Source: a virus
Lineage: Duplodnaviria; Caudoviricetes
IMG/VR virus record: IMGVR_UViG_3300035698_013504
Coordinates: 32,001-96,000 of that record
DNA: 64,000 nt
Strand: one strand, 5' to 3'
Below, one piece after another: positions 155 to 32,407 of this stretch. Every line of letters begins with the position of its first letter. Position 1 is the stretch's first letter. The notes under the pieces were generated by a model. The model ran no database searches, was not told the origin of the DNA, and saw only the letters and a program-made list of their open reading frames with translations. Made by a program: the position numbers and the translations under genes.

Positions 155-1612
155 ATGGCCAAGGACGCTGCCCCAGGACTCCCAGACTTCACGCGTTACG
201 GGAGTACACGCACCCTTCCACTCAACAAGCTCATACCCTATGTTGTGCAGGAGCACAACGCAAAGAGAGCGGGGAAACACAATGATATTCGGTTTGGGCC
301 GGACCAGCTCTTTAGCTGGGCAACGAAGAAGCCCCTTCCGGAAGCGGGGGAGCGAATCGCCGTTTATCAGCAGCCCCTCCACCGCGGCTCCTACGCCGAG
401 TTCGAAGGCACAATCCTTAACGGATACGGAAAAGGAACCGTCAAGCGAAAAGACAAAGGATTCGTCCTCGTCACCAAAGTGGATAATGACAAAGTCTCCT
501 TCGTAGTAGCCCACAAGAAGTTCCCGGAGAGGTACACCCTCGTTCGTGATAAGAAGGCGCCGAAGACCTGGTACTTGATCAATACGACCCCGATGGACGT
601 GGGGCGTATGCTGTCAGGCAAAAAGGTTGACCCGGGCGGTAACGCATCTGACGCCCTAGGTATCAACAAGCTCAAGTACACCAAGGTTCCTGAGGAGCAG
701 GTCGAGAAGCTCTTCAGCAGCGATTACCTCAACAGCGAGAAGATTGACGGCGCCGCGGCACTGTACCACGTCCTCTCTGATCGTATCGAGGCGCTCTCCT
801 ACCGTGTAAGCAAGACGGGCCGACCTCTCATCCATACATATAAGGTCGGAGGTCTCACAGGCGTCAATATCCCCAAGGAGTTCGTTGGCTCGGTTCTACG
901 AGGTGAGGTGTGGGGCGAGCGTAAGGGCGAAGCCATACCCCCACAAGAGCTTGGCGGCCTACTCAACTCGTCGCTGGCCAAGAGTATTCAAGATCAGAAG
1001 AAGACTGGCGTCACCATGCGTAACGCCCTCTTCGACATCTATCGGCTCGGTAAGACACCTATCGATCCAAATCTCCCCTACGCGGAGAGAATGGCTAAGA
1101 TCCAAGAAGTTCTCGACCATATGCCACAGAACAAGTTCCACCTCCCGCGCATGGCCGGGACGGAGGAGGAGTCTCGTAAGCTGTGGGAGGACATCAAGGG
1201 CGGCAAGAACCCCAGAACGACCGAGGGCATGGTTTCATGGCCTAAGGCTGGTGGCAAGCCCGTCAAGGTCAAGTTGCTGAATGAGCAGGACGTATGGGTG
1301 AAAGAAGTGTTCCCAGGCAAAGGTCGCCTTGAGGGCCACTCGGCTGGCGGCTTCAGCTATTCCCGATCGCCCGAAGGTCCGGCTGTTGGCGAGGTGGGGA
1401 GTGGCTTCACTGATGATACCCGTAAGCAGATGTGGGACCAACGTAAAGATTGGATCGGCAGGTTGGCGAGAACTCAGAGTCAAGGCGCCTTCCCAAGCGG
1501 CGCATTACGCTCGCCGGTCTTCCACGGTCTTCACGAAGATTATCCAGCTAAGTCAGCTGCGTGGCATGCCGGGCTTCGTGACGGCGTGGAGCAGGCGTCT
1601 GTCTCACGTTAG
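155..1612 (+). CDS. ATP-dependent DNA ligase with N-terminal LigD-type 3'-phosphoesterase (PE) domain
   Basis: N-terminus YVVQEHNAKRAGKHNDIRF...SWA...HRGSYAEFEGTILNGYGKGTV resembles LigD PE; adenylation motif I SEKIDG; C-terminal OB-fold motifs GEVGSGF and LRSPVF. Confidence 0.85.
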   Translation: MAKDAAPGLPDFTRYGSTRTLPLNKLIPYVVQEHNAKRAGKHNDIRFGPDQLFSWATKKPLPEAGERIAVYQQPLHRGSYAEFEGTILNGYGKGTVKRKDKGFVLVTKVDNDKVSFVVAHKKFPERYTLVRDKKAPKTWYLINTTPMDVGRMLSGKKVDPGGNASDALGINKLKYTKVPEEQVEKLFSSDYLNSEKIDGAAALYHVLSDRIEALSYRVSKTGRPLIHTYKVGGLTGVNIPKEFVGSVLRGEVWGERKGEAIPPQELGGLLNSSLAKSIQDQKKTGVTMRNALFDIYRLGKTPIDPNLPYAERMAKIQEVLDHMPQNKFHLPRMAGTEEESRKLWEDIKGGKNPRTTEGMVSWPKAGGKPVKVKLLNEQDVWVKEVFPGKGRLEGHSAGGFSYSRSPEGPAVGEVGSGFTDDTRKQMWDQRKDWIGRLARTQSQGAFPSGALRSPVFHGLHEDYPAKSAAWHAGLRDGVEQASVSR

Positions 1613-1629
1613 CAACGCGTTGCTATAAC
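1610..1629. promoter_or_regulatory. Recurring intergenic motif, copy 1 (perfect 16-bp palindrome TAGCAACGCGTTGCTA)
   Basis: Palindrome at 1610-1625 starting at the ligase stop codon; similar sequences at 15250, 31017, 39713 and 59282. Confidence 0.5.
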
Positions 1630-1659
1630 CCACCTACATCTACCACTTCTTTTTAGCTA

Positions 1660-1688
1660 TTGCGTCGACACCCAATACGAGATAGACT
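1660..1688 (+). promoter_or_regulatory. sigma70-like promoter candidate
   Basis: TTGCGT-N17-TAGACT upstream of the ATG at 1736; T-rich upstream tract TTTTTAGCTAT also seen upstream of the promoter at 88. Confidence 0.4.
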
Positions 1689-1735
1689 AAAGGAAGCTCG
1701 AGATTGTAATACGGTCCGATATCTGAGGTTAGACA

Positions 1736-3994
1736 ATGGCCAGATACCCTCAGACGCTTTCCGCCGCTGATCGTAAGCGGGTGGTGGAGCTTCTGCACGG
1801 AACAAAACCAGACCAAGGCGTCAACCCGCACGCCGGGGCTGGTCGCATTGTGGAAGGTGCGCGCAATCCCCAACGCGTGCACTTCTGCAAAAATAATCTC
1901 CCAAGAGGCATGGAGAAGGATGGCTTTGTCCTTACGGCTCCCATTGCGTTGGCAATCATGTCGGCGCTAGGTAGTGGTTCCGGCGTTTACGGACTCTCTC
2001 AGGCAGGGCGGGTTGTTGATGCGAAAGATAAGTACCGGAGTACGATGCTACGTGACCAGGCGTTGTTTAGGAATCTCAACAAGACATTTCGTCGTATGAC
2101 AAACACGGAGGTAGTACCTGGGCGCAGGGCTGGTGAGGCGTCGTTGAAGGGTAAGGTAGTCCCCGAAGTGATTGATGTTGGTACCCAGCTTTTCGATCTT
2201 TGGGGGGACCGAGATAACCAGTCGGCGTACGATACAGTCATGAAGACCAAGAGTTTGGCCAAGTACTCCGTCGGCAAGATGCATGAAACCATGATAGCTC
2301 GAGGGTGGAAGCCGGAGGAAGTTGGCGCCACCCTCATTAAGATGCGCGAACTCAAGTTGCTTGAGGGTGAAAAGGTATACTACAAGGGTAAGCCGGTAGA
2401 CCTGGCGTATACCCCGCAGTCTATCGATTTTGTGACAGAGGGCGGCCCGGCTGTTGCAGCCGCGGTGTTCAAGCTTCGGGAAGCCGGTAAAACTTCAGAG
2501 GAACTTAGAACTTACCACGCGAGAGCTCAGAAGTGGAGAAAGGTTAATGACCCTGCGTTTTACGCCGAGACATCACAGTTTGGCGTTGAGGAGGAGGCCG
2601 CAGCAAACAAGTTGGAGTTTGCGAAGACACTTCTCAATAGCGGGTATAACGAGCGAGATGCGGTAAGAGCCGCTAACGAAGTTGCCGCCGCTGACAACGG
2701 AGACTACCCCCTCTCCCCCAGGGTTGCGAAACACTACATTGACAACGGGTCTAATCGTATTATGCAACCGGACGGGTGGATGTCGTTACCGACTGTTGGT
2801 AAAGATATGTCGCGGTATTATAATAACGTAGGTGACGCCAGGGGCGGGAGTTCGGTCGAAGCCCTCCGCGGAATGAGGAACGAACTGGGTATAGACGTTG
2901 CGGCCCCACATGTTGGCGGCGCTATCGTAGATACCGCCCGGATAGCGAAGAACGTACCCAAGGGCTTGCGAGCCGCGTACGGCGTAGCCAAAGGTAGTGA
3001 CACAGCGAAGCTGGTAGGACGTCTTGTTTCGAACACGCGGAGTATGGGATCTTTCCCGGGGCTACGATCGCTCGGCGGTAAAGCGCTTGGTGGCGCCGGA
3101 AAAGCCGCGGCAACGTTAGCGTTGTGGCACGCAGGTATAAATTCAGCAAAAGCTGTTGGCGGCGCATTGTATGACGGCGCAGTACATGGCCAGGGACCGT
3201 TTGACACCCCGGAGTTTGAGGGGTTTCAGAATATGCTGGATGAAAGAGCCACGCTTGATAAGGCGAAAGGGAAGAACAAGTTCTTGAGTTGGGTGCAGGA
3301 AGGACTTACGGGAGCTCTTAAATTCGACCCAGGGTACAACTTGAACATGGTCGGGTCCGGCCAGTTGAACCGGTACACCTCTCAGGACCTTGAAGCAGAC
3401 ATCGCGGCTGCAGACAAGGCGCACGCCACCGGTATGCCGATGTCGTGGGCCGAGAAACTCTTGTCCGGTAGAAGCTACGTCAACGCTACCCGGCGCGGGC
3501 AACATTATAAGGACGGCAGTGAGCTGTTGCGTAGACTTATGGTTAGACCCCTTCGTGCCAGAAAGGACTTCACGACGAACACGGGGTCCACAGCTCCAAG
3601 CGGCAGTACCTACTTGCGTGACATTCATCGCAATGAGTTTGCATCTATGGGCCACGCGATGGACTACTGGTCTAAGAATTACCCGGAGATGATGGACATT
3701 TCTCAGGGCGGAAGATGGATGCGGCGTGTTGGACCTGTGCCGGAGTCCACCCCGAGCTATTTCTCTGCTGGTGACATGATTTACGTTCCAGAGAGCCAGC
3801 AAGCAACGACGACACACCAGCCGATCGTTGAGCGCAGTAAGGCGGTTGATCTTGTGCAGCAGGGGTTAAATAGTTACAGGCTTATGGACCCTTCGGTACA
3901 CAGACGTGATATCTTGAAACCTAATCCCACAATTTCACCTACAATGAGAGGTCTCATTGGTCGTGACCCGGTGGCACCCACGTATAAGGAGTAA
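1736..3994 (+). CDS. Hypothetical protein (752 aa), possible internal virion protein
   Basis: Long ORF, Gly/Ala-rich hydrophobic stretches, no family recognised. Confidence 0.7.
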   Translation: MARYPQTLSAADRKRVVELLHGTKPDQGVNPHAGAGRIVEGARNPQRVHFCKNNLPRGMEKDGFVLTAPIALAIMSALGSGSGVYGLSQAGRVVDAKDKYRSTMLRDQALFRNLNKTFRRMTNTEVVPGRRAGEASLKGKVVPEVIDVGTQLFDLWGDRDNQSAYDTVMKTKSLAKYSVGKMHETMIARGWKPEEVGATLIKMRELKLLEGEKVYYKGKPVDLAYTPQSIDFVTEGGPAVAAAVFKLREAGKTSEELRTYHARAQKWRKVNDPAFYAETSQFGVEEEAAANKLEFAKTLLNSGYNERDAVRAANEVAAADNGDYPLSPRVAKHYIDNGSNRIMQPDGWMSLPTVGKDMSRYYNNVGDARGGSSVEALRGMRNELGIDVAAPHVGGAIVDTARIAKNVPKGLRAAYGVAKGSDTAKLVGRLVSNTRSMGSFPGLRSLGGKALGGAGKAAATLALWHAGINSAKAVGGALYDGAVHGQGPFDTPEFEGFQNMLDERATLDKAKGKNKFLSWVQEGLTGALKFDPGYNLNMVGSGQLNRYTSQDLEADIAAADKAHATGMPMSWAEKLLSGRSYVNATRRGQHYKDGSELLRRLMVRPLRARKDFTTNTGSTAPSGSTYLRDIHRNEFASMGHAMDYWSKNYPEMMDISQGGRWMRRVGPVPESTPSYFSAGDMIYVPESQQATTTHQPIVERSKAVDLVQQGLNSYRLMDPSVHRRDILKPNPTISPTMRGLIGRDPVAPTYKE

Positions 3995-3998
3995 CGAG

Positions 3999-5189
3999 AT
4001 GACTGAGGAAACGCCCGTACCCGACGAGAAGCCTGTAGAGGATGTATTCGCGGCGGATATCGTTGATATCCCGGATATTCCTTTGCCGGATATTAGCGCA
4101 CAGGAAGTCCCCATCTCCGATAACTTCGACGCGGCTTTTCGCGTTGCAATCATCGGTGTAGGCCAGGGCGGTTCTCGTATCGCCGAGACGTTCTACAAGA
4201 TGGGTTACCGCAAGGTCTGCGTGGTTAACACAGCGTTGCAGGACCTGGGCGGCATTGACATCCCCGACACCAACAAACTGGCGATTGGTACGCACGGGGC
4301 GGGTAAGGACCCGTCGAAAGCGCGCGCGATCTTCCAGACCAAGGAGAGCGATGTCTACGACCTTATGCGGCGTAGCTTTGGCTCTGAGTTTGACTGGATC
4401 CTCGTCTGCGCCGGTTCTGGAGGCGGCACAGGTGGTGGCATCTTGCTAGACACCGTCAGGCTGTCTCACGAGCTCATGCGTACGCTTAAGCTAGAACCTG
4501 AAGGCACATGCCGGGTTGGCGCTGTTGTGGCCCTCCCAAAGAACAGCGAAGGCGTTAAGCCCTCAGCGAACAGCTTCCGTTTGATGAAGGAAGTCTTCCC
4601 GCTAGCTCTTGGGTCGAAGAAGCAGAAGCGATCGATCAGCCCGTTGATCATCATAGACAACGAGCAAATTCGACGCCTTTACCCCCGCGTGCCCGTTACG
4701 CAGCACTGGGAAATCGCGAACCGGAGCATCTGCTCGCTCTTCCATCTGTTCAACAGCATCTCTATTAAGCCGTCGAAGTTCACCTCGTTTGACCAGGCGG
4801 ACTTGGAGACAATCCTTACAAGTGGTATCCTTACGTTTGGCGCCACCCCGGTTGCGAAGTGGGATGGCCTCACGGATATCGCATTCGCGCTGCGTGACAA
4901 TCTCAGCAAGAACATCCTTGCCGCGACGTCTACGGCGGGTACGGTTGCTGGCGGTATCGTCATCGCAGGACAACAGATTCTTGAGCAGCTGCCTTCAGCC
5001 AACATTGAACACGGCTTTGAGCAGCTGACCCGTATGATGAAAGACGGCAGTATGCTCCATCAGGGCATCTACCCGGGTAGTAAGCCTACGCTGGTTGTTT
5101 ACACGGTGCTAGGCGGCTTGGACATTCCTGATGAGCGTATGTTGGAGCTGGAGACCGTCGGTCAGTTGCGTGATTGGGACGGAGCCTAA
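3999..5189 (+). CDS. Tubulin/FtsZ-family GTPase (PhuZ/TubZ-like)
   Basis: IIGVGQGGSRIAE (T1 loop), VNT, GAGKDP, GSGGGTGGG signature, LIIIDN, FDQADL; start moved to ATG 3999 after AAGGAG. Confidence 0.9.
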   Translation: MTEETPVPDEKPVEDVFAADIVDIPDIPLPDISAQEVPISDNFDAAFRVAIIGVGQGGSRIAETFYKMGYRKVCVVNTALQDLGGIDIPDTNKLAIGTHGAGKDPSKARAIFQTKESDVYDLMRRSFGSEFDWILVCAGSGGGTGGGILLDTVRLSHELMRTLKLEPEGTCRVGAVVALPKNSEGVKPSANSFRLMKEVFPLALGSKKQKRSISPLIIIDNEQIRRLYPRVPVTQHWEIANRSICSLFHLFNSISIKPSKFTSFDQADLETILTSGILTFGATPVAKWDGLTDIAFALRDNLSKNILAATSTAGTVAGGIVIAGQQILEQLPSANIEHGFEQLTRMMKDGSMLHQGIYPGSKPTLVVYTVLGGLDIPDERMLELETVGQLRDWDGA

Positions 5190-8127: not shown

Positions 8128-11100
8128 ATGCCCAAGATTCTCGGAGAGGACATCTTTTCGTTCGATGATATCCCGGCCGCACGTAAAGATATCTTCGCTC
8201 GTACCCTCTCGGCTTTTCAGGGAAAATACCCCATTGAGAACTCGAGGTACAAACTTCGGCTGCAGAACCTGCGGTACGACAAGCCCAAAGACTTTTCACT
8301 AAGCGATCAGAAGAAGGCGCTACTCCAGCACGGTTCACTCTCTCACAGACTTAAGGGTACGTGGACGCTGGAGGACAAAGCTGGTCAGGTGGTTGACGCG
8401 GCAGAGCGTGTTGTCGCACACGTGCCCTATATGACAAACCGGGGTACGTTTATCAACCAAGGTCGTGAATATACGATTACCAACCAGATGCGTCTTCGCC
8501 CTGGGGTGTACGCTCGTGAGAAAGAGAACGGAGCCCTTGAGGCTCACTTCAACGTCAAACCTGGATCAGGTTCCTCTTTCAGAGTTTACATGGAGCCTGA
8601 GACCGGTATCTTTCGTCTCAACATTCATCAGGCGACTCCGAAACTGTTTCCAGTCCTTCGGGCGATGGGTATTGACCGACGAGAACTCATCAAGTGGTGG
8701 GGAGAAGATATCGTCAGAGTCAACGAAGAAGCCGACGACCCTAGGGCCGTCAAGCGACTCCACGAGATCCTGACCCGCAAGCGCGCGAAGAAGGGCGTCG
8801 GCGACAACGAGGACGTAGCTAAGACTTTGCGCGAAGCTCTTGAAGCCATGGAGCTCGACGAAGAGACAACGACATCTACGCTCGGCGCCGCGTACAAGAA
8901 TGCGTCTGCTCCGGCCATCCTCCGCGCGACACAGAAGCTGCTTAACATCAGACACGGTAAGGAAGAGGCCGATGACCGAGACTCACTTCGATACCAAACC
9001 TTCCACACACCTGCAGACTTCTTTGCAGAGCGGGTTACCCTTGATGCCGGTCAGAAGTCCCGAAGACTTCTCTGGCGTTCAACCCTTCGGAGCGGGGTGC
9101 AGCACATCACGGGCGGGGCGCTTACCCCCCAGATGGAGAGCGTCCTTCTTCATTCAGGGCTAGGCCAGCCACTTGAGGAGATCAACCCCCTCGACATCCA
9201 CGATCAGCGCCACCGAGTTGTACGTTTAGGTGAGGGCGGTATCTCTTCAATCGATAGAATCCCCGAAGAGAGTCGTAATGTGCAACCGTCCTACTTCGGC
9301 CTCATTGACCCCATCCGTACCCCGGAGTCCATCAAGGTTGGTGTCGACAACCGCATTGCTCATCACACCTATTACGGCAAGGACGGTAAGTTCTACAGCC
9401 AGCTGCAGAACCCTAAGACCGGGGAGACAGAGTACGTTGACGCGGCAGAGATGTCGAAGTCTACGATCGCCTTCCCTGAGGAGATGGGGAAGAAGGGCAG
9501 CAAGGTCCGCGCCATGGTCGGCGGTTCCAGTGTTGAGTTCGTGGACAAGAAGGCTGTCGACTACATTCTTCCCACAAGCACACAGATGTTCAACTTCCAC
9601 TCCAACCTTGTCCCGTTTATCAGCGGTATCAAGGGTGGCCGCCTTCTCATGGGTTCCAAGTTCTTCAACCAAGCTCTTGCCCTTCGTGAGGGCGAGGCTC
9701 CGCTCGTTCAGGCCCTTGATCCTCACGAGACCGGTATCCGAGGCAAGGATACTAGCTTTGAGGATCTGGCGGGTACCAGCTTAGGCGCTGTGCATGCTAA
9801 GGATTCGGGGCAGGTCTTACGAGTTACGAAGGACGCTGTCTCAGTCAAACATGCAGACGGAAAGGTGAAGACGTATGACCTGTACAATAACTTCCCCTTC
9901 AACCGCAAAACCTTTATCCATAACACAGCGGTTGTGCAGCCGGGCGACGTCGTCAAACCAGGGCAGATACTTGCGCGGAGCAACTACACCGATAAGGGTG
10001 GCTCGCTCTCTATGGGGGTCAACCTCCGAACCGCTTATATGCCTTACAAAGGACTGAACTTCGAGGATGCGATTGTCATCTCCGAGGGCGCCGCGAAGAG
10101 GATGGCCAGTGAGCATATGTACAGCCGGGACATTGACGAGTCTGAGGGTGCAAAGGTAAGCCGTCGCAACTTCATCTCAATGTTCCCTACGAAGTACGAG
10201 AAGCCCCAGCTCGACACGATTGATGAAAACGGCGTGATCAAGCCCGGCACGACCGTGAAGAAGGGCGACCCGTTGATTCTCGGCGTAATGAAGCGCCCGG
10301 CTTCTAAGCTGTACCGCGGCGGTCGAGTCTCTATGTTCAAGGACATCTCAGTCGTATGGGACCACGAGGCTGACGGTGTAATCACCGACGTCGAGAAGAA
10401 AAAGGGCGGTTGGAACGTCATCGTCAAGTCTTACGAGCAGATGCAGGAGGGTGACAAGCTCTCTGGCCGCTACGGTGACAAGGGCGTGGTAGCCCGTATC
10501 GTCCCTGACGCACAGATGCCACACGGTAAGGACGGCGTCCCCTACGAGGTCTTACTTAACCCCCTCGGTATCGTCAGTCGTACTAACCCGAGCCAGATCT
10601 ACGAAGCGCTCCTCGGTAAGATTGCCCGCAAGCGCGGCGTACCCTATAAGGTGCCTGCGTTCATGGATAAGTCTCTTATCGACTACACTCGTAGAGAGAT
10701 GGCGCGACACAATGTCACCGACACCGAAGATCTCATTGATCCCATGACCGGTAAGAAGATTCCCGACGTATTGACTGGTGAGCGTTTCATCCTCAAGCTC
10801 CAGCACACAGCCGAAAGTAAGGGTAGTGGACGTTCACAGGCATCGTACACAACGGAAGGTCTTCCTGCGGGCGGTGGCGACGAAGGTGCGAAGAAGATTG
10901 GCCAGATGGCTTTGACCGCGCTTCTCTCTCACGGAGCCAGCGAGGTGATCCGTGATGCCGCCGTTGTACGCGGTCAGCGTAACGACGACTACTGGCGAGC
11001 TTTCCGCCTTGGGTACTCACCGCCCACACCCAAGGAGACCCTCGTCTACAAGAAGTTCCTTGACAGCCTCAAGGCAGCCGGTATTAACGTGTCGAAGAAG

Positions 11101-12507
11101 GGCAACGATGTTCACGTCTTTGCGCTCACCAACAATGACGTGAAGACTATGTCACACGGAGAGATCAAGTCCTCCGACACACTGGACCCGAAGAGTGGTC
11201 GCCCCATCCCGGGCGGCTTGTTTGACATGAAGACGACAGGTGGTGTTGGCGGCAACAACTGGGCGCACATCAAGCTGCCCGAGCCTATTTTGAATCCTGT
11301 CATGGAGAAGCCCGCGCAGGTTCTCCTCGGCATCACCGGCCCTAAGTTCATGAGTGTTGTGTCCGGTAAGACACCGCTGCACGGTAAGTATGGTGGGCAT
11401 GCGCTGGTAGAGGCCTTAAAGCGTATCAACGTCGACCAGGAGATCGAGCGCACACGACAGGAGGTGCGTACAGCCACGCAGACTAAGCGCGACCGGGCAG
11501 TCAAGAAGCTTGGCTACCTGAATGCGATGAAGAAGCATGGCGTGAGCCCGCAGGACTTCATGTTGAGCTCGGTCCCGGTACTTCCCCCGTCTTTCCGTCC
11601 GATCGTGATGCAGGACAAGATGAAGCTGGTTGCGCACCCCAACCTTCTGTATAAGGATCTGTTGGACGCGAAGCAGGACTTCACCGAGCTCTACCCCGAT
11701 GTAGGTGACGAGGGCGTTGGTGATGAGCGTCTACGCATCTACAACTCATTCAAGGCTGTTGCCGGGCTTGGCTCACCTGTATCCAGGAAGCTACAGGAGA
11801 AAAGTGTCCAAGGTCTCCTCGGTCACATCTTTGGCGGAAGCCCTAAGATGGGCGCCTTCCAGCGTAGAGTCCTCGGCATTCCTACTGACGTAGTAGGTCG
11901 AGCCGCGATTACACCGAACCCCTCGCTGAACATGGACCAGGTTGGTCTACCCGAGGAGAAGGCGTGGACGATCTACCGCCCCTTCATCATTCGTAAGCTG
12001 GTACGTAGAGGTATGCCCGCGGTCGCAGCAGCCAAGCTTGTTGCGAGCAAAGGTAAAGCCGCACACGCCGCGATGTTGGAAGTTGCGAGTGAGCGCCCCG
12101 TATTGATCAACCGCGCCCCCACGCTCCATAAGTTCGGTTTGATGGCCGCATGGCCTGTTATCGTTAAGGGTCACACGTTGCAGATTCCGCCGGTTATCGT
12201 CAGCGGGTTTAACGCCGACTTCGACGGCGATGCGATGAATTACCACGTCCCGGTAACGGATGAGGCGGTCAGGGAAGCAAAGGAGAAAATGCTCCCCAGT
12301 AGCAACCTTCTTTCGGTGTCAGACTTCAAAACTCACTACCACCCTAAGAATGAGTTCTTGCTTGGACTCTACCTTGCGAGTAAGATGAAGAAGAAGAAAC
12401 AACAGGCCAAGACGTTCAATACGAAGGAAGACGCGCTTAAGGCGTATGCGCGTGGCGAACTTACCGTAGATGACCCGGTCATCATTATGCAGGATGAAAA
12501 GTTATGA
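8128..12507 (+). CDS. DNA-directed RNA polymerase, beta subunit fused to the N-terminal half of beta' (contains the catalytic NADFDGD)
   Basis: beta motifs VPYMTNRGTF, TPESIKVG, GLNFEDAIVIS, GDKLSGRYGDKG, LNPLGIVSR; beta' motifs PVLPPSFRP, NRAPTLH, FNADFDGD; junction near 11090-11110. Confidence 0.95.
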   Translation: MPKILGEDIFSFDDIPAARKDIFARTLSAFQGKYPIENSRYKLRLQNLRYDKPKDFSLSDQKKALLQHGSLSHRLKGTWTLEDKAGQVVDAAERVVAHVPYMTNRGTFINQGREYTITNQMRLRPGVYAREKENGALEAHFNVKPGSGSSFRVYMEPETGIFRLNIHQATPKLFPVLRAMGIDRRELIKWWGEDIVRVNEEADDPRAVKRLHEILTRKRAKKGVGDNEDVAKTLREALEAMELDEETTTSTLGAAYKNASAPAILRATQKLLNIRHGKEEADDRDSLRYQTFHTPADFFAERVTLDAGQKSRRLLWRSTLRSGVQHITGGALTPQMESVLLHSGLGQPLEEINPLDIHDQRHRVVRLGEGGISSIDRIPEESRNVQPSYFGLIDPIRTPESIKVGVDNRIAHHTYYGKDGKFYSQLQNPKTGETEYVDAAEMSKSTIAFPEEMGKKGSKVRAMVGGSSVEFVDKKAVDYILPTSTQMFNFHSNLVPFISGIKGGRLLMGSKFFNQALALREGEAPLVQALDPHETGIRGKDTSFEDLAGTSLGAVHAKDSGQVLRVTKDAVSVKHADGKVKTYDLYNNFPFNRKTFIHNTAVVQPGDVVKPGQILARSNYTDKGGSLSMGVNLRTAYMPYKGLNFEDAIVISEGAAKRMASEHMYSRDIDESEGAKVSRRNFISMFPTKYEKPQLDTIDENGVIKPGTTVKKGDPLILGVMKRPASKLYRGGRVSMFKDISVVWDHEADGVITDVEKKKGGWNVIVKSYEQMQEGDKLSGRYGDKGVVARIVPDAQMPHGKDGVPYEVLLNPLGIVSRTNPSQIYEALLGKIARKRGVPYKVPAFMDKSLIDYTRREMARHNVTDTEDLIDPMTGKKIPDVLTGERFILKLQHTAESKGSGRSQASYTTEGLPAGGGDEGAKKIGQMALTALLSHGASEVIRDAAVVRGQRNDDYWRAFRLGYSPPTPKETLVYKKFLDSLKAAGINVSKKGNDVHVFALTNNDVKTMSHGEIKSSDTLDPKSGRPIPGGLFDMKTTGGVGGNNWAHIKLPEPILNPVMEKPAQVLLGITGPKFMSVVSGKTPLHGKYGGHALVEALKRINVDQEIERTRQEVRTATQTKRDRAVKKLGYLNAMKKHGVSPQDFMLSSVPVLPPSFRPIVMQDKMKLVAHPNLLYKDLLDAKQDFTELYPDVGDEGVGDERLRIYNSFKAVAGLGSPVSRKLQEKSVQGLLGHIFGGSPKMGAFQRRVLGIPTDVVGRAAITPNPSLNMDQVGLPEEKAWTIYRPFIIRKLVRRGMPAVAAAKLVASKGKAAHAAMLEVASERPVLINRAPTLHKFGLMAAWPVIVKGHTLQIPPVIVSGFNADFDGDAMNYHVPVTDEAVREAKEKMLPSSNLLSVSDFKTHYHPKNEFLLGLYLASKMKKKKQQAKTFNTKEDALKAYARGELTVDDPVIIMQDEKL

Positions 12508-15269: not shown

Positions 15270-17120
15270 ATGATCAGAACGACACTTGGACAAGTACTTG
15301 TGAACGAGGCGCTCCCGGAAGACCTCCGGGACTATGACCGTGTGTTCACAAAGAAATCAGTGCCCGACCTGTTCATGTCTCTAGCGCAGAATCACCCGGA
15401 GAAGTATCGCGATGTCATTCAGAAACTGATGATGATTGGCCAGGAGGTGTCGACCGGCTACGGCCGTAACGCCAGCCTCTCACTCAAGGATGTAGCCCCA
15501 CCTGAGGAGCGTAAAGACATCCTGGAGAAGCTAGAAGGTGAGATCGCCGCCCTTAACGAGAACCCGACGCTACCTACAGCATCGAGGAACAAGAGTATTA
15601 TCCTCAAGGTGTTGAAAGCCCAACAGCTATTGAAGACCATTAACATGGAAACAGGAGAGCGCGACGGTAACACCTTTGCTCTTCAAATCCTTTCCGGCGC
15701 CCGCGGTAACCCCAACCAGTTCGCATCTCTACGAGTTGGTGATGGACTCGTTACCGATCACCGCGATGACCCTATCCCCATCCCTATCCTTCATAGTTAC
15801 GCTGAGGGCCTGGACCCTGTCGAGTACTGGGCTGGTTCCTACGGTGCGCGTAAGGGTACGATGGCTGGTAACCTCGGTACACCTAAGTCTGGTTTCTTCG
15901 GCAAACAGATCGCGTTGTCAGCCCACCGCATGATTGTCACTGAGAAGGACTGCGGCACAGAGAATGGTATCCCTGTTGACGCAGACGACTCCGACAACGA
16001 AGGCGCCCTGCTCGCCAGAGGATACGGCAAGTACAACGCAAATACGATCATCACACCTCGCATGACTCAGGAGCTTGAGAAGGAGAAGTCGATCCTCGTA
16101 CGATCTCCTATCACCTGCGATGCGGCTAACGGTGTGTGTCAAAAGTGTGTTGGGGTACGTGAACGCGGCACGCTTCCCCCTCTTGGTGATAACGTAGGGG
16201 TGACAGCCGCGACCGCGATCTCTGAACCTATGACGCAGGCGCCCCTCTCCGCCAAGCATACAGGCGGTGTCGCAGAAGAGAAGGACAAGAAGGTGCAGGG
16301 GTTCGACGCAATCAACAGGCTCGTCCAGATCCCTAAGACCTTCCCGGAAGCCGCGACAGTCTCACGAGTTGACGGCGTCGTTACGAATATCATTGAAGCG
16401 CCCCAGGGTGGCCACTTCGTCGAGGTAGGCGGAGAACGCCACTACGTACCCGAAGAGCGCGAGATCACCATTAAAGAGGGCGAGACCCTCGAGGCGGGTG
16501 ACGCGCTGTGTGATGGTATCCACAACCCGGCGGACGTGGCGCAGTACAAAGGTATTGGACAGGCGCGTAAGACATTCGTTGAGCAGTTCCGCCAAGTCGC
16601 AGACAATACGAACATTCGCGTCAACCGCCGGAACCTTGAGCTTCTGTCGCGCGGTATTGTAAACCACGTGCGAGTCAACGAGCTTGACGGTGTCGATGAT
16701 GCGCTGCCGGGGGATGTCCGAGAATTTGACTCCGTGACGAGAGGGTATCAGCCTCGTTACGGCTTCAAGACGTTGACTCCCCAGCGTGCGGTTGGTAGTT
16801 ACCTCGAGAAGCCAATCAACCAGTACTCGATTGGCACAAAGGTTACGCCCCGCATGGTAAAAGAGATGCAGGGCATGGGCATCAAGAAACTTACATCACA
16901 CGTTGACCCGCCTCCCTTTAACCCAGAGATGCGGCGTATCATGGAGACGCTCTCCTACGCCGACGATTGGATGGTAAGGTTAGGCGGTTGGTACTTAAAG
17001 AAGGGGTTGGGCGAAGCCGCGCATTTCGGCTCAACATCTAAGCAGCACGGATCTTCATATATCCCCGCTCTCGCGCAGGGAACCCAGTTCGGGCGGGTGC
17101 CCGAAGGAAAAGGATACTAA
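15270..17120 (+). CDS. DNA-directed RNA polymerase beta' C-terminal subunit
   Basis: TTLGQ start motif, SGARG, bridge helix GARKG...TEKDCGT, Zn site RSPITC...CQKC, trigger loop ISEPMTQ...KHTGG. Confidence 0.92.
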   Translation: MIRTTLGQVLVNEALPEDLRDYDRVFTKKSVPDLFMSLAQNHPEKYRDVIQKLMMIGQEVSTGYGRNASLSLKDVAPPEERKDILEKLEGEIAALNENPTLPTASRNKSIILKVLKAQQLLKTINMETGERDGNTFALQILSGARGNPNQFASLRVGDGLVTDHRDDPIPIPILHSYAEGLDPVEYWAGSYGARKGTMAGNLGTPKSGFFGKQIALSAHRMIVTEKDCGTENGIPVDADDSDNEGALLARGYGKYNANTIITPRMTQELEKEKSILVRSPITCDAANGVCQKCVGVRERGTLPPLGDNVGVTAATAISEPMTQAPLSAKHTGGVAEEKDKKVQGFDAINRLVQIPKTFPEAATVSRVDGVVTNIIEAPQGGHFVEVGGERHYVPEEREITIKEGETLEAGDALCDGIHNPADVAQYKGIGQARKTFVEQFRQVADNTNIRVNRRNLELLSRGIVNHVRVNELDGVDDALPGDVREFDSVTRGYQPRYGFKTLTPQRAVGSYLEKPINQYSIGTKVTPRMVKEMQGMGIKKLTSHVDPPPFNPEMRRIMETLSYADDWMVRLGGWYLKKGLGEAAHFGSTSKQHGSSYIPALAQGTQFGRVPEGKGY

Positions 17121-17728: not shown

Positions 17729-19936
17729 GTGAGAGCTATGCCTGGATCCCAACTCGAATCCGCGTTTGCTAACCTTGCGCACGCTCGTCTCAAAGACCGT
17801 GCTCCCGGGCTGTTGGACTTCCTCATTGGATTCCAGCTGCTCGATAAGAATGAGGAAGAGACTCGGGCTGTTGGCGTATTTGGATTCAAAATAAAAGCAG
17901 AATGGTATTACAACCCCGTCTTTTATCTGAACGGCCGCCTCAAAGGCGAGGAGCTCTTGTACATTAAGAGCCAGGATGCCTTTGTGCCGCTGCAGGAGAA
18001 CTGGGTCAACTACTTGACCAGTCGTAGGCCCCGAGTCCTCGGCGAGTTCGAGGAAAAGCCTACGAGTCAGCTTGGGTTCCTAGAGCCTGACCTGTCGATC
18101 TTCCGCAATGCCGACTTCCTGGGCAAGAACAGCTCGTTCCCCCTTGACCAGGATGGTCTGCGCTCTCTATACACTGCGAGCCCCTTCGCCGACAAGTTCG
18201 AGGGTCTTGCTGACAAGTTTCACCTGCCCACCTTCTTGAAGGAAGCAGGCCCCCGCGCTCTCGAGTGTCTTGTTCAGACCATGGTATCCCACGACAAGTT
18301 CGCGGAAGTGGTCTTGAACTTCTACGACTTCGCCGAACTGGCTGAAGCTCGCTTCAACGCGGTGATGGGCAAGCAGGCCGCAGCTAAGCCCGAGGCTGGC
18401 AAACTCGTCATCGTCTCTCGTCGTGACTGGGAAGACCTCCCCGACAACCTCTCGTGTGATGCGCGCGATAAGCTGAGGAATCAGCTCGTTAAGCGTACGA
18501 TCGCAATCGAGGACAACCGCGACGAAGAGGACACGACGGCCGTCTACAACACCGAGACTCTTGGTAAGAGCCTGATGAGCCCCGATGAGAGCGGCCTCTT
18601 TAGTATGCTCATGCGTAACGGGGACATGAAGGAAGTCATGATCTTCAAGTCGCCCTGTAGCCTAGGGTACGACGAAGGGGAAGACGGGTCTAACCGTGTT
18701 GTGGTTGTCGACAAAGCCGAGAAGAACTACGGCAATTGCTGGGCCGACGCGATCTTCGTCACCCCCTCAAAGCCTGACGCTGTTGATGGCTGGAAAGCCT
18801 TCTTTGATAAGTTGCCAGAAGCCACGACCATCGAGGTCGACGGGATCTATATCCTCGTCAACGAGAAGATGCAGTCTTCGACGCCGTTCCAGGTCGAGAA
18901 AACGATTACGAATCCGGACGGTAAAGTCACGGCCAAAATCCACACCCGTGACTACATGAGTTACCGCGACCGTTCAGACCGTCTCAACCCGCCCCCGCGT
19001 AGACGCCACGGTGGTTGTATGCCGTCTTGCGATAGTGGCTCTGCGGATGAAATCGTCCTTACAAAGAAACCAGGAGCTCGCATCACGCGGCTGAGTCGCG
19101 CAGCGTACGTTCCCCTTGGGTACAAGGTGATCAAGTTGTCCGACGAGTTCGGACCCAACAAGATCATTGATCCGGGCACCCTCTCGGATCTGGAACACCA
19201 GATCTTCAAGGTTGGCAGCCTCCGCCACCTTAAGGTCTACACCGCCGACGGTCATGAGTACTTCATCAACACTGACGACAAGGACTTTATGGAGCCTCTG
19301 TCGAAAGATGCCGCACTGCGTTCCCTCGTAGCGCAGCATGGCATTCAGGCTGATGTGGCTTATGACATGATCGGTAGGGCGAAGCGCGACAAGGCTGCGC
19401 GATACTTCGTTAAGTATGCGCGGGCCTATCCTACCTTCAGCTTCCCGGGCGATAACGTTCCTAGCGGGTTTGATGCGAAGAACGGTGTCAATGAGATTGA
19501 GCCTTGGGACAACGAGTACGATGTAGACATGCCGGGCGATGCCCCGCCGAACGAACCCGATATGCCGGATGACGTACGTCGGCTGGCCGAAGATGCCGGT
19601 AATACCGGTCAGAAGGAAGTATTGGACACCTCAGTGCTTGCAGGGCTCGTAAAGACCGTGAATTCTGATGATGTCACCGACAAATATCTAGGGGATATCC
19701 TCCTGGGCCTCGACCGAGTGGGCCGTATCCTCTTCATGTTCTACTGGCACAACGATAAGTTCAGGGAACGCTACGGTCAGCAGGACATGCCTGAGCTGGA
19801 AGACAGTCTACGTAACGTATTCCAGCAGATGGGTGACCTAGCACTCTTCCTCAAGCAGAAGACTGTGGAGCCGGAACCCGGCGATGAGGAAGCTGAACTT
19901 GACCTTGACAGTGTAGCCTCAGGAGGGATGCAGTAA
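17729..19936 (+). CDS. Large hypothetical protein, probably head-associated
   Basis: 735-aa ORF with GGAGG RBS (alternative ATG 17738); K-x-A/S motifs GKNSS, GKQAA, FKVGS, VKYAR between apparent domains. Confidence 0.8.
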   Translation: MRAMPGSQLESAFANLAHARLKDRAPGLLDFLIGFQLLDKNEEETRAVGVFGFKIKAEWYYNPVFYLNGRLKGEELLYIKSQDAFVPLQENWVNYLTSRRPRVLGEFEEKPTSQLGFLEPDLSIFRNADFLGKNSSFPLDQDGLRSLYTASPFADKFEGLADKFHLPTFLKEAGPRALECLVQTMVSHDKFAEVVLNFYDFAELAEARFNAVMGKQAAAKPEAGKLVIVSRRDWEDLPDNLSCDARDKLRNQLVKRTIAIEDNRDEEDTTAVYNTETLGKSLMSPDESGLFSMLMRNGDMKEVMIFKSPCSLGYDEGEDGSNRVVVVDKAEKNYGNCWADAIFVTPSKPDAVDGWKAFFDKLPEATTIEVDGIYILVNEKMQSSTPFQVEKTITNPDGKVTAKIHTRDYMSYRDRSDRLNPPPRRRHGGCMPSCDSGSADEIVLTKKPGARITRLSRAAYVPLGYKVIKLSDEFGPNKIIDPGTLSDLEHQIFKVGSLRHLKVYTADGHEYFINTDDKDFMEPLSKDAALRSLVAQHGIQADVAYDMIGRAKRDKAARYFVKYARAYPTFSFPGDNVPSGFDAKNGVNEIEPWDNEYDVDMPGDAPPNEPDMPDDVRRLAEDAGNTGQKEVLDTSVLAGLVKTVNSDDVTDKYLGDILLGLDRVGRILFMFYWHNDKFRERYGQQDMPELEDSLRNVFQQMGDLALFLKQKTVEPEPGDEEAELDLDSVASGGMQ

Positions 19937-27131: not shown

Positions 27132-28631
27132 ATGCTAAAATCGATACACTCAACCAGCTACGACTACGGCGAGCCCATGATGAGACTCGTGGACGTTCAT
27201 AGTCGCGGTGTCGACAGTGCCTGGATGGAGAAGCGGTCAGCGGTACTCACCGAAGCGATCGCGAACATCAGGCCAGAGCGTGGGCGGTCGTTCATTCACC
27301 TCATCGCCATGGGCTCGTGCGATACCTACGGCGGCAATCGCAACGGTGACTGGTTCACAAAGACAGCTGAAGAGTTCGAGGTCCCCTACCCGGAGGAGAA
27401 CCCTGAGAAGGGCGCTGGTAAACTCATCAAGGTAAGCTGTGGCCTCATCGAGCGTCATGACACCTTCGTGAAGTACGGGCACGTCTTTAGTCATCACAAG
27501 AATAAGGATCCCGGGATTGCCAGCGGGTCTATCCACACTTCGGCGTGGAACCCGGACATGGACCGCGTCGAGTTGATCATCAACGTCGACAACGGTAAGT
27601 GGGAGAATGACCTCACCAAGCTCGCGAGCGGTGACGACATCCCCGTGTCGATGGCGTGTAAGGTCCCGTGGGATATCTGTACCGCCTGCGGTCATTACGC
27701 CCGGACACGTAAGGACTACTGTTCGCACGCTAGAGACATGATGACACAGATTACGAAGTCGGGTCACCTCGTTGGCGTACTTAACGAGCGGCCCACCTTC
27801 TTCGACATCTCCAAGGTACTCCGCCCCGCCGACCGTATCGCCTGGAGTTTGCAGAAGGTCGCATCTGCCGCTAACACAATCGTGACACCGGACAACGTTA
27901 TCGTCTCTTCGTCAGCGTTGGCGGATGAGATGGGACTCGTAGCGCCCTTGGCGGTAGCTATGGACGTACCCCTTATCTTGATGAAGCGCGCGGCCCAGTT
28001 GCGTAAGCTCTCCGAGATGGAGAAAGAGGTTGAAGGTGAGATGCAGGGCCACAGCAAGAAGCGTGGCGTCATCCGCCTAACGATCGCAGTACCGCAAGAC
28101 GATCAGATTGACGAGAAGGACACGAAGACACTCAGGTCAGACGACCTGAACAATGTTCTCGGCCAGATGTCGGGTAAAGGCATCAGTCTTGGGCTGAAGG
28201 ACTTCTTACGCCTCGTAATGGGCGATATCGATGACTTGGACAGCGTCATCCCGACCGCGAGTTCTATGTTGCCATCAGTCTTCCGAGACCTAGTGGAAGA
28301 CGGCGACACGGAAGAAGTATCCGGTGACGCGACGTACAAGCCGACGAAGGGTAAGGTCTCCAAGGACACGGAGGCCGTCACCGACAAGCTCACTGAGAAG
28401 TGTTCAATTCACAGTGGTCCTGTCACGCGGCGAATCATGATCGTGAAGATCGGCCCGCGTCGGTCAGCGACGTCGGAGGATGATCAGGTGGAGAAGGCTT
28501 CGGCCGAAATCCAAGCAAAAGCGAGGGTGCTGGCACGTGAATACGCCAAGTACAAAATAGCCTTTGCGTCTGACCATTCTGCTGACGAGACTATAAACAC
28601 CTTGACCGTGTTACAAAACTTCGTACAATAA
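27132..28631 (+). CDS. Prohead (capsid maturation) protease with Cys/His insert
   Basis: HKNKD, VSMACKVPWDICTACGH...YCSH and FFDISKVLRPAD resemble HK97/assemblin-fold phage proteases; sits directly before scaffold- and capsid-like genes. Confidence 0.7.
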   Translation: MLKSIHSTSYDYGEPMMRLVDVHSRGVDSAWMEKRSAVLTEAIANIRPERGRSFIHLIAMGSCDTYGGNRNGDWFTKTAEEFEVPYPEENPEKGAGKLIKVSCGLIERHDTFVKYGHVFSHHKNKDPGIASGSIHTSAWNPDMDRVELIINVDNGKWENDLTKLASGDDIPVSMACKVPWDICTACGHYARTRKDYCSHARDMMTQITKSGHLVGVLNERPTFFDISKVLRPADRIAWSLQKVASAANTIVTPDNVIVSSSALADEMGLVAPLAVAMDVPLILMKRAAQLRKLSEMEKEVEGEMQGHSKKRGVIRLTIAVPQDDQIDEKDTKTLRSDDLNNVLGQMSGKGISLGLKDFLRLVMGDIDDLDSVIPTASSMLPSVFRDLVEDGDTEEVSGDATYKPTKGKVSKDTEAVTDKLTEKCSIHSGPVTRRIMIVKIGPRRSATSEDDQVEKASAEIQAKARVLAREYAKYKIAFASDHSADETINTLTVLQNFVQ

Positions 28632-28684
28632 AGGTAATGGCAAACACGGTCTTACGACGTATTACTCAGTAAAGGAGAAGTGTG

Positions 28685-29971: not shown

Positions 29972-29982
29972 GAGGAACCCAA

Positions 29983-30375: not shown

Positions 30376-30418
30376 CGTTAACCGTTGAGTCATTCCCTCA
30401 ACAAGGAGGAATTAAGGT

Positions 30419-30946
30419 ATGCCTGGCGACATGACCCCCGGACAAATGTACGATCACGAGCTTAACCCCACGAAGGGGTGGCCGTCTCCGTACGCTATCG
30501 ATTACGCCGCAGCGGTCTCGGCCTCCGAGACCAATACGATTCAAGCTGGTATGGGCTGCTACCTGGACGCCAATGGCGAATTCAGGCTTGGTAGCTCCGC
30601 CGGTGCTGTCACGATCCTCATGCTTCAGAACGTGAATGACTTCGATGCGAACTCCGACGTCGGCAACATCTCCGGCGGCGTAATGAGCGGCTTGCCCTGT
30701 GTGGCCAGCTACGAAGTCTGGACGACCGAGTTCGTCGCTGGTAACTACGCCCCCAACGATTACCTCAAGATCGAAACCGCCGCTGGTAACATCGGCAAGG
30801 TCACTGAAGGCAACGCCTACATCGACCAGATCTGTGGTATCGTCTCGTTGGGTACGTTCAGCAACGAGCACCAGGTCAGCGTCCTGCAGTTCTGGACCTA
30901 TCACCTGCCGCCCATGAGTACGTCGAGCTCGTCTAGCTCCGCGTAG
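30419..30946 (+). CDS. Putative capsid decoration/cement protein
   Basis: AAGGAGG RBS; small beta-rich protein directly upstream of the MCP; C-terminal STSSSSSSA tail; function inferred from position. Confidence 0.55.
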   Translation: MPGDMTPGQMYDHELNPTKGWPSPYAIDYAAAVSASETNTIQAGMGCYLDANGEFRLGSSAGAVTILMLQNVNDFDANSDVGNISGGVMSGLPCVASYEVWTTEFVAGNYAPNDYLKIETAAGNIGKVTEGNAYIDQICGIVSLGTFSNEHQVSVLQFWTYHLPPMSTSSSSSSA

Positions 30947-30961
30947 CCGTTTCACAATCAG

Positions 30962-31003
30962 CCCGGAGACCGCTAGTCCCAGATAAGTGGAGCGGTCTCC
31001 GGG
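30962..31003 (+). promoter_or_regulatory. 13-bp perfect inverted repeat upstream of the MCP gene
   Basis: CCCGGAGACCGCT (30962-30974) and AGCGGTCTCCGGG (30991-31003); no U-tract. Confidence 0.6.
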
Positions 31004-31016
31004 AGTCACACGACAA

Positions 31017-31034
31017 TAGTGACACGTTACTAAC
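31017..31034. promoter_or_regulatory. Recurring intergenic motif, copy 3
   Basis: TAGTGACACGTTACTAAC upstream of the MCP RBS. Confidence 0.4.
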
Positions 31035-31059
31035 GTCGTAAACAGAAGGAGTAAAAGAG

Positions 31060-31985
31060 ATGCCCGACCCGACCGCCAAAATGGTCAACGAGGCACTTCT
31101 GGACCGCCTCGCAGACGACGGCATGAAGAAGGAAGCGCAAGACGCCGTCACGGACTACGTTCGCATGAGAGTTCGTGAAGACGGCTTCCTCCGCCGTATT
31201 ATGAATCCCGTCCAGATCAGCAACGATCAGCTCGACCGTCAGGTCGACACCGACAAGCCGGTGAAGATCGTCGACATGGAGCCGGACAGCCCGGCCGCCC
31301 AGAGTGTTCCGTTCGCGACTCTGCCCTCCAACCGCTACATCCGCGGTCGGAGATGTCGAGTTATGTTCGACCGGATCGAAACTCCCCGCTTCACTAAGGA
31401 TGTTACCGAGCTCCGTACGTACGACATGGACATCCGTCAGGTCCTGTCGGACAACGCGATCAAGGACGTCCTGGCCGAAGAGGATGGCAAGTTGTTGCGG
31501 CCATCACGCAGATTCTCGGTTCGCAGGGAGCCACGGTCACCGAGACCGGCAGTATTCAGTGGCAGGCCATCAGTGGCGGTATCACCCGCGACACCATCGC
31601 CGACGCCATGAAGATTCTCCCCTCCACCCCGAGTCACCTTAACTGCGCGACCGTCCTGGTGAACAACATCACCATCTGGGACATCGTGAAGTGGGAACGG
31701 CCCGAAGTTGGTGGCGATCTCGCACAGGAAATCCTGATCAACGGTTTCGCCGAGCGTACCCTCATGGGTTGCCGGTGGATCATCACGATCAAGACTTCGC
31801 TCGTCCCGACGAACACTATCTTCCAGTTTGCCGAACCGAAGTTTATCGGCAAATTTTTCGTTTTGGAAGATACGACGATGTACATCGACAGAAAAGCTTT
31901 CATGCTCGAGTTCTTCGCCTATGAAGAGATCGGTTGCACGATCGCCAATGTCGCTTCCGTAGCTCGCGCCGACTTCACGGCGTAA
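31060..31985 (+). CDS. Major capsid protein (HK97-fold-like), reading frame interrupted by a 1-nt shift near 31490
   Basis: ORF 31060..31611 reads as MCP-like up to IRQVLSDNAIKDVLAEEDGK; the -1 frame is open from 31491 (VAAITQILGSQGATVTETGSIQWQAISGGITRDTIADA) into ORF 31608..31985; joined product about 308 aa; position after protease and scaffold. Confidence 0.7.
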
Positions 31986-32012
31986 GCGGCGAACACGCCA
32001 AGACTCAGCCCG

Positions 32013-32040
32013 GTAAGGGGGCGGGGAAACCCGCCCTTAC
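32013..32040 (+). terminator. GC-rich hairpin with GAAA loop after the MCP gene
   Basis: GTAAGGGGGCGGG-GAAA-CCCGCCCTTAC; no clear U-tract, so it may be a stabiliser rather than a terminator. Confidence 0.4.
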
Positions 32041-32065
32041 CGAACTCATACTAAGGAGTACCGAG

Positions 32066-32407
32066 ATGTCCCAGGAACAGGACGCAGCCCTCGACGCTCT
32101 TCAGACGATTTCCGCTCAGGTCTATGTCCCGCGCTTCCTCGAGAAGTGTGCGGAACTCGGTGTCCCTATCGACAACGAGCAGGCCCTGGAAACCGCTTTG
32201 GAGACCACGGCTCTCCTGAAGATGGGGCAAGCTGAAGAGTCGACGTCTTTGATCCAGCGCGGTGCTGACGCCCTCCGTAAAAACGCGGGCGTTCCCACTG
32301 CTCAGGTTCAGGAGAAGGTCGCATCTGATGCGAGCCTCGTAGATCAGGTTATTGCCAATCCCAGTATCAGCGCCGCCCTCGACACTCTAAGGGCCGCCGC
32401 AAGCTAA
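32066..32407 (+). CDS. Small helical head-module protein
   Basis: AAGGAG RBS before ATG 32066 (track start 31934 overlaps the MCP); EKVAS motif. Confidence 0.7.
   Translation: MSQEQDAALDALQTISAQVYVPRFLEKCAELGVPIDNEQALETALETTALLKMGQAEESTSLIQRGADALRKNAGVPTAQVQEKVASDASLVDQVIANPSISAALDTLRAAAS

Follow-up and report, generated by a model that had tools for sequence, protein, structure and literature searches.

Which signal does a phage prohead protease read when the cleavage codes of its known counterparts are at chance in the head proteins encoded around it? The question is raised by a 64,000-nucleotide stretch of viral DNA (hereafter the window), namely bases 32001-96000 of a virus record that is complete at 200,903 bp and bears terminal repeats (IMGVR_UViG_3300035698_013504; Duplodnaviria, Caudoviricetes). 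Its head-gene block encodes proteins with a recurrent lysine-centered motif together with a predicted prohead protease, the product of open reading frame (ORF) 27132. The first-pass annotation of the window had noted more than 35 instances of the motif by eye and had read them as a K-x-A|S/A cleavage code of this protease. We find that the motif is a genuine feature, confined to the head block, and that the protease model has the fold of T4 gp21 and carries conserved sites of its own. It is probable, in our judgment, that the signal, refined to [M/L/F]-[E/G/x]-K-x-[A/S]-[S/A/G], is what the phage's own prohead protease recognizes and cleaves; the occurrence of cutting, the bond and the order of events are what we infer from these observations.

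A lysine-centered motif restricted to the head block

We distinguished a strict form of the motif, [EGD]-K-x-[AS]-[AS], from a loose one, K-x-[AS]-[AS], and counted both in the 25 plus-strand ORFs from 7002 to 32407 (the head block), against 2000 per-protein shuffles that control for Lys, Ala, Ser, and Glu content. The strict motif occurs 24 times versus 3.2 expected (z 11.8) and the loose motif 46 times versus 15.7, and none of the 2000 shuffles matched either count. The strict motif is at chance both in the tail ORFs (3 versus 2.7 expected), which bears out the earlier impression that it is rarer there, and in the upstream ORFs (1 versus 0.7); the 241 ORFs of the genome hold only about nine further strict sites outside the head block, in approximately 55,000 residues. 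Twelve of the 25 head proteins possess a strict site (2.9 expected), and removal of the scaffold-like protein, ORF 29983, and the protease still leaves 14 strict sites versus 2.6. The motif is thus spread across the head block, as had been claimed for most ORFs between 7002 and 27119, although the two RNA polymerase proteins in that interval have no strict site. Controls in which these residues stand in another order ([AS][AS].K, K[AS][AS], and [AS]K.[AS]) show no enrichment in the head block, and this speaks against local Lys/Ala-rich composition as the source of the signal.

An unbiased scan of 23,497 three-residue gapped patterns placed EK.A, K.AA, and M.K.A at the top in the head block. 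The refined signal has M/L/F at -2, a hydrophobic position that the original definition had missed, followed by E/G at -1, the invariant K (for which Arg does not stand in), a frequent Q at +1, and A/S at both +2 and +3 (e.g., MEKQAA, MGKQAS, MEKRSA, and LEKVAA). Ten of the 46 loose sites fall within the first 40 residues of their proteins, where 12% would be expected (p 0.04), and several proteins, here and in relatives, begin with M-x-K-x-A-[AS]. The known codes are all at chance in the head proteins, viz., [LI].E (74 versus 62.7 expected), [SAG].E (119 versus 129), and [VLI].AS (9 versus 9.7), so another code must serve this protease.

A gp21-fold protease with three candidate self-sites

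An AlphaFold model of the ORF 27132 product, built on 29 homologs (mean predicted local distance difference test, pLDDT, of 81), aligns over residues 1-233 with T4 gp21 (5jbl_B) in VIA-align with Z 11.3 and a root-mean-square deviation of 2.9 (146/164 residues). The next unrelated fold reaches Z 4.9, the herpes simplex virus 2 (HSV-2), human cytomegalovirus (HCMV), and Epstein-Barr virus proteases reach Z 4-4.7 over approximately 110 residues, and the top three Foldseek matches of the model are all 5jbl. On the strength of this model, ORF 27132 has the prohead-protease fold of T4 gp21. In the 29-sequence alignment (A1), H56, H122, S173, E147, and D181 do not vary. The protein matches a single PHROG, of unknown function, and among its tblastn matches are phage proteins that bear the annotation prohead or capsid maturation protease; it has hundreds of metagenomic homologs, several of them on contigs of 170-212 kb. 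A query of viral contigs with the single ORF 27132 sequence returned no related loci.

Three motif instances in the protease itself occupy telling positions (Table 1). At self-site 1 the Lys is present in 103 of 103 homologs and the Ala at +2 in 97, and model confidence merely dips around it (residues 31-40, mean pLDDT 63). Self-site 2, inside a segment (233-255) with pLDDT below 50, retains the Leu in 94, the Lys in 103, the Ala in 103, and S/A/G at +3 in 96 of the 103 homologs, with conservation ending at +3. Self-site 3 follows a disordered segment (432-451, pLDDT below 50), and a K.[AS][ASG] string is found 30-75 residues from the C-terminus in 79 of 102 homologs. Bacillus phage G gp19, a more distant homolog, retains self-sites 1 and 2. 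The N-terminal segment of gp21 blocks its active site and is self-cleaved (PMC9958956), the phiKZ and SPN3US proteases cut off their own C-termini (PMC5694885), and in herpesvirus pUL26 a release site closes the protease domain, with a maturation site lying a few dozen residues ahead of the C-terminus that binds the capsid protein (PMC4498786). By analogy, the positions of the three self-sites match the places at which known proteases of the gp21 fold process themselves.

The protease domain also displays a conserved cysteine cluster (C183, C186, C197, and usually H199, within residues 183-199) that looks like a zinc-binding insert and is probably lacking from the much shorter T4 gp21. About a dozen metagenomic homologs (P0001, P0026, P0044, P0061, P0064, and others) measure 730-870 amino acids (aa) and contain intein or homing-endonuclease domains (Hint_2, Intein_splicing, and LAGLIDADG_3), which makes the protease gene a recurrent intein target.

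Recurrence of the signal in cultured relatives

The closest cultured relatives of ORF 27132 are encoded by the Vibrio phages D69, D181, and D148 and the Salmonella phage Arash (32-33% identity); some actinophage proteins labeled 'prohead protease' are farther removed still than phage G gp19. The unbiased scan of the D69 and Arash head blocks again brought K.AS, EK.A, L.K.A, and M.K.A to the top, with the tails at chance. The form with the hydrophobic residue, Φ-x-K-x-[AS]-[AS], occurs 25 times versus 3.3 expected in the D69 head block and 21 times versus 2.4 in that of Arash, and in the phage G head region K-x-A-[ASG] occurs 24 times versus 6.4. A position matrix trained solely on D69 and Arash, and hence out of sample for the present genome, called 23 sites genome-wide at a threshold of at least 9 bits, 15 of which lie in the head block, i.e., in 12.8% of the proteome (p 7e-9).

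The order protease, scaffold-like protein, MCP (major capsid protein) is common to the window phage, the loci L003 and L004, D69, and Arash. Sites are densely packed in the scaffold proteins of four phages (10 in 269 aa in D69 and 6 in 255 aa in Arash), and those of D69 and Arash hold repeated units such as ELVKEAS. The code does not extend to the branch of Mycobacteriophage Myrna, as its remote protease homolog gp97 lacks the motif after the protease domain and its capsid protein lacks it as well. The D69 protein encoded directly after the capsid gene (L002 24861-25523) contains a long perfect (EAEV)n repeat.

Candidate substrates in the head block

The sites in candidate substrates are, on sequence comparison and modeling, conserved in position, variable in their flanks, and situated in predicted disordered linkers. 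One example is the 735-aa protein of ORF 17729: among 118 homologs the K133 site is kept in 94 and the K215 site in 56 (the median for other Lys positions being 1). Both sites border gap-rich alignment regions and fall in model segments with pLDDT below 50 (100-138 and 209-223). This protein shows weak BLASTP similarity to Arash gp218, and a Foldseek comparison of its model with the PDB gave no fold match. The multi-site protein of ORF 23331 belongs to a family of 1766 clusters, and 130 of its homologs contain 702 K.[AS][ASG] strings versus 186 +/- 13 after shuffling, with positional hot spots; it is weakly similar in BLASTP to Arash gp220, which has seven sites. Both gp218 and gp220 are virion proteins by mass spectrometry (PMC10585845).

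The scaffold-like protein has several sites, as first noted, albeit seven rather than eight. The position of its N-terminal site, at approximately residue 23, is conserved in L003 and L004, whereas the short and gap-heavy alignment of the D69 scaffold does not put the first site there. The capsid-protein site, in the form Φ-x-K-[EQ]-A-[QG], occupies the corresponding position in L003, L004, and D69, and the motif is also present in Arash. The instances originally listed for the protease (K242 and K455), the capsid protein N-terminus (GMKKEAQ), and ORF 32066 (EKVAS) are all present. The L003 protein of 137 aa between the beta' C-part and the ORF 17729 homolog, which is the gene-order counterpart of ORF 17122, starts with M-K-K-S-A-A. 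A homolog search with ORF 24646 returned none.

In the assembly the major capsid gene occupies two frames, with a break at 31491. Contigs from two salt-lake runs (X1 and X2) have one extra T behind 31491, with which the gene becomes one open frame of 308 aa (...EEDGKFVAAITQ...), as in L003 and L004; the runs X5-X14 cover no more than small portions of the MCP stretch. Because the extra T in both runs restores the open frame, the break is, on this sequence comparison, an assembly error or a minor variant and not a programmed frameshift.

Table 1. Protease, self-sites, candidate substrates, and context genes of the head block (positions in the window; residue numbers refer to the motif lysine)
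Feature	Coordinates	Strand	Sites	Further evidence
Prohead protease with fused helical C-terminal (scaffold-like) part, 499 aa; predicted protease domain at residues 1-233	27132..28631	+	self-sites 1-3	AlphaFold model, structure alignment
Candidate self-site 1	27225..27242	+	M-E-K34-R-S-A	family logo W-[ML]-x-K-R-A-A
Candidate self-site 2, end of catalytic domain	27849..27866	+	L-Q-K242-V-A-S	family logo L-x-K-[VA]-A-[SAG]
Candidate self-site 3, ~45 residues before C-terminus, upstream of conserved C-terminal helix	28488..28505	+	V-E-K455-A-S-A	
Scaffold-like Ala/Glu-rich protein, 429 aa	28682..29971	+	7 (K23, 127, 153, 175, 205, 381, 406; 6 strict)	
Small head-block protein, 130 aa	29983..30375	+	5 loose (best Q-E-K39-T-A-A)	L004 homolog with 3 sites
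Major capsid protein	31060..31985	+	N-terminal G-M-K-K24-E-A-Q (31123-31140)	phrog_2522 (major head protein) match to C-terminal part
Protein downstream of MCP, 113 aa	32066..32407	+	Q-E-K-V-A-S (32309-32326)	L003 ortholog with site at similar position, residue 88 of 109
Conserved head protein, 735 aa	17729..19936	+	K133 (18119-18136), K215 (18365-18382)	
Multi-site head protein, 440 aa	23331..24653	+	K38, 74, 103, 217, 285	
Protein, 224 aa	19936..20610	+	G-M-G-K61-Q-A-S, N-M-E-K92-Q-A-A	both ~15 bits, D69/Arash matrix
Protein, 443 aa	13921..15252	+	N-terminal F-G-K22-Q-A-S (13978-13995)	
Protein, 156 aa	17122..17592	+	extreme N-terminal M-D-M-E-K5-Q-S-A	
Protein, 429 aa	20620..21909	+	D-M-G-K168-R-S-S	
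Lys/Ala-rich orphan, 396 aa	24646..25836	+	N-terminal G-L-E-K27-V-A-A	15 bits, D69/Arash matrix
Lys/Ala-rich protein, 423 aa	25848..27119	+	N-terminal A-L-E-K15-V-A-G	D69/Arash matrix
Protein, 367 aa	7002..8105	+	three strict (K250, K258, K309)	weakest member, matrix scores <= 5.8 bits
RNA polymerase beta fused to beta' N-part (context)	8128..12507	+	no strict site	Pfam RNA_pol_Rpb2_6 (3.8e-52), Rpb1_2 (1.1e-25)
RNA polymerase beta' C-part (context)	15270..17120	+	no site	Pfam RNA_pol_Rpb1_5 (1.4e-22)

A proposed processing scheme and its alternatives

We propose that the protease would join prohead assembly via its conserved C-terminal helix, become activated by a cut at its own self-site 1, and release itself at self-sites 2 and 3. 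It would then chop the scaffold-like protein at six or seven sites and remove N-terminal propeptides or linkers from some ten further proteins of the head block, and perhaps about 26 residues from the capsid protein. The motif may mark an internal-protein cargo, as the first reading had it; only two of the motif-bearing proteins have orthologs detected in Arash virions. A complex prediction for the protease domain (38-236) with scaffold residues 1-60 scored 0.01, which speaks neither for nor against binding.

As to the bond, we lean toward K-x-A|S (P3 Lys, P1 Ala/Ser, P1' Ser/Ala), because the Ala at +2 equals the Lys in invariance (103 of 103 homologs at self-site 2), the +3 residue is small, and conservation ends at +3, a pattern that fits P1/P1' better than P2'/P3'; Ser is tolerated at +2 in this phage. 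To our knowledge, proteases of the gp21 fold are not noted for strong prime-side specificity past P1', and this counts against cleavage directly after the lysine. Nevertheless, for the cut as such the bond Φ-x-K| (P1 Lys, P3 hydrophobic) is a serious second option: the hydrophobic residue at -2, variable -1, and invariant K reproduce the P3-x-P1 layout of the T4, phiKZ, and herpesvirus sites (PMC5694885), the arrangement would mirror the T4 L/I-x-E| site with the P1 charge reversed, Arg is no substitute for the Lys, and the capsid-protein site has Q/G at +3, which would be unusual for P1'. As a full account of the data, the same protease and signal with Φ-x-K|x-A-S as the cut, differing from our proposal in the bond only, nonetheless appears rather unlikely to us.

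Readings that dispense with cleavage fare worse. The motif might be a docking or capsid-targeting signal that loads proteins into the prohead via the scaffold, the protease, or the shell and is left uncut, a notion to which the clustering of sites in the first 40 residues and the M-x-K-x-A-[AS] starts lend some color, as does the T4 capsid-targeting sequence, itself a short N-terminal peptide (PMC9958956). Yet that T4 peptide ends in a cleavage site, so both roles coincide there, and docking does not predict the dense scaffold arrays or a site that lies, within a disordered linker, exactly where the protease domain ends, as cutting does; we regard uncut docking as improbable. A modification of the invariant Lys, be it methylation, acetylation, or ubiquitin-like conjugation of the Ubl-E2-JAB-E1 type, would account for a motif centered on a Lys that Arg cannot replace, and ThiF/E1-like proteins are indeed encoded by Arash (L009, 176809-177291) and D69 (L010, 173999-174484). 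However, phage G shows the enrichment and the conserved self-sites with no ThiF match, and modification leaves unexplained the sites at the protease domain borders and the arrays in a discarded scaffold, so this explanation seems very improbable. Least credible of all is the idea that helical Lys/Ala/Glu-rich sequence or internal duplications gave rise to a motif devoid of function: the scaffold-like proteins are certainly Ala/Glu-rich, with the repeated units seen in D69 and Arash, but the enrichment persists without the scaffold proteins, the order-permuted patterns show none, and position-conserved sites occur in non-repetitive proteins, in disordered linkers rather than helices.

Several points weigh against the proposed cleavage code itself. 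The paper on the Arash virion proteome reports no peptide termini, and its coverage figures cannot reveal them. A strict site is absent from the RNA polymerase proteins and the portal, whereas such proteins of phiKZ-like phages are processed. The sequence around self-site 1 and the capsid-protein site is well conserved and could be structural, and sites in folded parts (protease K163 and ORF 17729 K526) are probably not cut. As regards the protease assignment, ORF 27132 matches no Pfam family at E <= 0.01, and no similarity to gp21 could be detected at the sequence level: aligning the family with T4 gp21 in hhalign yielded a probability of 0.1, and a profile search of the PDB sequences came back empty. 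The catalytic residues of gp21 are H85 and S140 (PMC12991175), for which the invariant H56, H122, and S173 of ORF 27132 are candidate counterparts.

Comparison with known maturation proteases

With T4 gp21 (PDB 5jbl; MEROPS S77, Pfam Peptidase_U9) the ORF 27132 system shares the fold of the catalytic domain, a protease gene beside those of the scaffold and capsid proteins, a self-site (here a candidate) in the N-terminal segment (PMC9958956), and a scaffold rich in sites. Several head proteins are predicted to bear short N-terminal propeptides, and the M-x-K-x-A-[AS] starts resemble the short N-terminal propeptides of the T4 internal proteins. ORF 27132 has twice the length of gp21 and includes a helical C-terminal fusion and a Cys-rich insert, and Lys-x-Ala/Ser-Ser/Ala takes the place of the T4 L/I-x-E| code. 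The phiKZ gp175 and SPN3US gp245 proteases act on a large number of head and ejection proteins, which they cut at S/A/G-x-E| (PMC5694885, PMC10052503). The likeness to these lies in a large phage with multisubunit RNA polymerase genes among its head genes, one short motif on many head proteins, multiple sites within propeptides, and a putative C-terminal self-processing of the protease; it does not extend to the code or to the polymerase proteins and portal.

The herpesvirus assemblins (pUL26 of HSV and pseudorabies virus, HCMV pUL80a; MEROPS S21) may belong to the same fold class, although their structural similarity to ORF 27132 is weak (Z 4-4.7). Like pUL26 and pUL80a, ORF 27132 comprises a protease domain, a conserved candidate site at its end, a linker and helical part, and a second such site that precedes a conserved C-terminus by a few dozen residues. 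The herpesvirus release and maturation sites end in Ala|Ser or Ala|Thr (PMC4498786), a pair to which the small Ala followed by Ser/Ala at +2/+3 of the present motif, i.e., at the putative bond, is similar. On the other hand, a Lys replaces the hydrophobic P3, the codes have just the Ala-Ser core in common, V/L/I-x-A-S being unenriched here, the scaffold is encoded by a separate gene, and many more proteins carry sites.

All characterized gp21-fold proteases (T4, phiKZ, 201phi2-1, and SPN3US) cut after Glu (PMC5694885). The Lys-x-Ala signal is widespread; if it is indeed the cleavage code, it would constitute a new specificity in the gp21 fold, nearer to that of herpesvirus assemblin. Tentatively, this lineage with Arash, D69, and phage G may combine a gp21-fold protease with a herpesvirus-like protease-scaffold fusion that cuts Lys-x-Ala|Ser, which would make it the closest phage counterpart of the assemblin system. 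A full-text search of the literature turned up no phage protease for which a Lys-x-Ala rule had been described, and the Arash paper identifies neither its protease nor any cleavage.

If the reading holds, the whole processed head proteome would become predictable from sequence, including candidate ejected proteins packaged with the virion RNA polymerase, and mature virion proteins, propeptides, and ejected proteins could be annotated across thousands of uncultured genomes. As this very large family includes the cultured phages Arash, D69, and phage G, the prediction is directly testable; because trypsin cuts at the motif's own Lys, tryptic proteomics would hide a processing site close to it. 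Sensors of the bacterial antiphage signaling systems that are based on cyclic oligonucleotides (CBASS) are reported to detect prohead-protease cleavage via bait loops matched to phage families (PMC12991175), and a new protease code accordingly predicts what the baits in the hosts of these phages would look like.

Genomic setting and additional observations

The sequencing runs containing the window are salt-lake metagenomes. All sizeable ORFs of the window are on the plus strand, in the order upstream group, head block, and tail genes; the head block consists of the RNA polymerase genes and many proteins of no known family, followed by the protease, scaffold-like, and capsid genes, and the portal gene lies outside the window (genome 162813-164657). 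A blastn search of the protease-MCP region against phage records gave no match. The multisubunit RNA polymerase is thus encoded within the head-gene block, and as the Arash homologs are among the most abundant virion proteins (mass spectrometry, Arash paper), a packaged and ejected enzyme, as in the phiKZ-like phages, is suggested by analogy.

Among the tail proteins, the pattern scan was led by poly-Ser and by a Cys repeat (C..CD, CDE, and D.G.C), the latter attributed to a Ser-rich ORF of 833 aa (34481-36982). The Lys/Ala-rich tail protein of 1254 aa at 49061-52825 has seven loose K-x-[AS]-[AS] strings in residues 1031-1209, probably a compositional chance cluster, given that the tail set is unenriched overall.

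The upstream group includes a LigD-type phosphoesterase protein and a tubulin-like protein. The former, ORF 155-1612, earlier called a ligase, has a LigD-type 3'-phosphoesterase domain (PF13298, 1.9e-09); its strings MAKDAAP and PAKSAAW, the second of which had been counted as a C-terminal instance of the motif, are at chance level in an unenriched region and were rejected as sites. A tblastn search with ORF 1736-3994 gave no match. The tubulin/FtsZ-family GTPase, encoded at 3957-5189 just upstream of the head block, passes the Pfam cut-off (Tubulin, 2.7e-08) and may represent a PhuZ/TubZ-like phage cytoskeleton gene.

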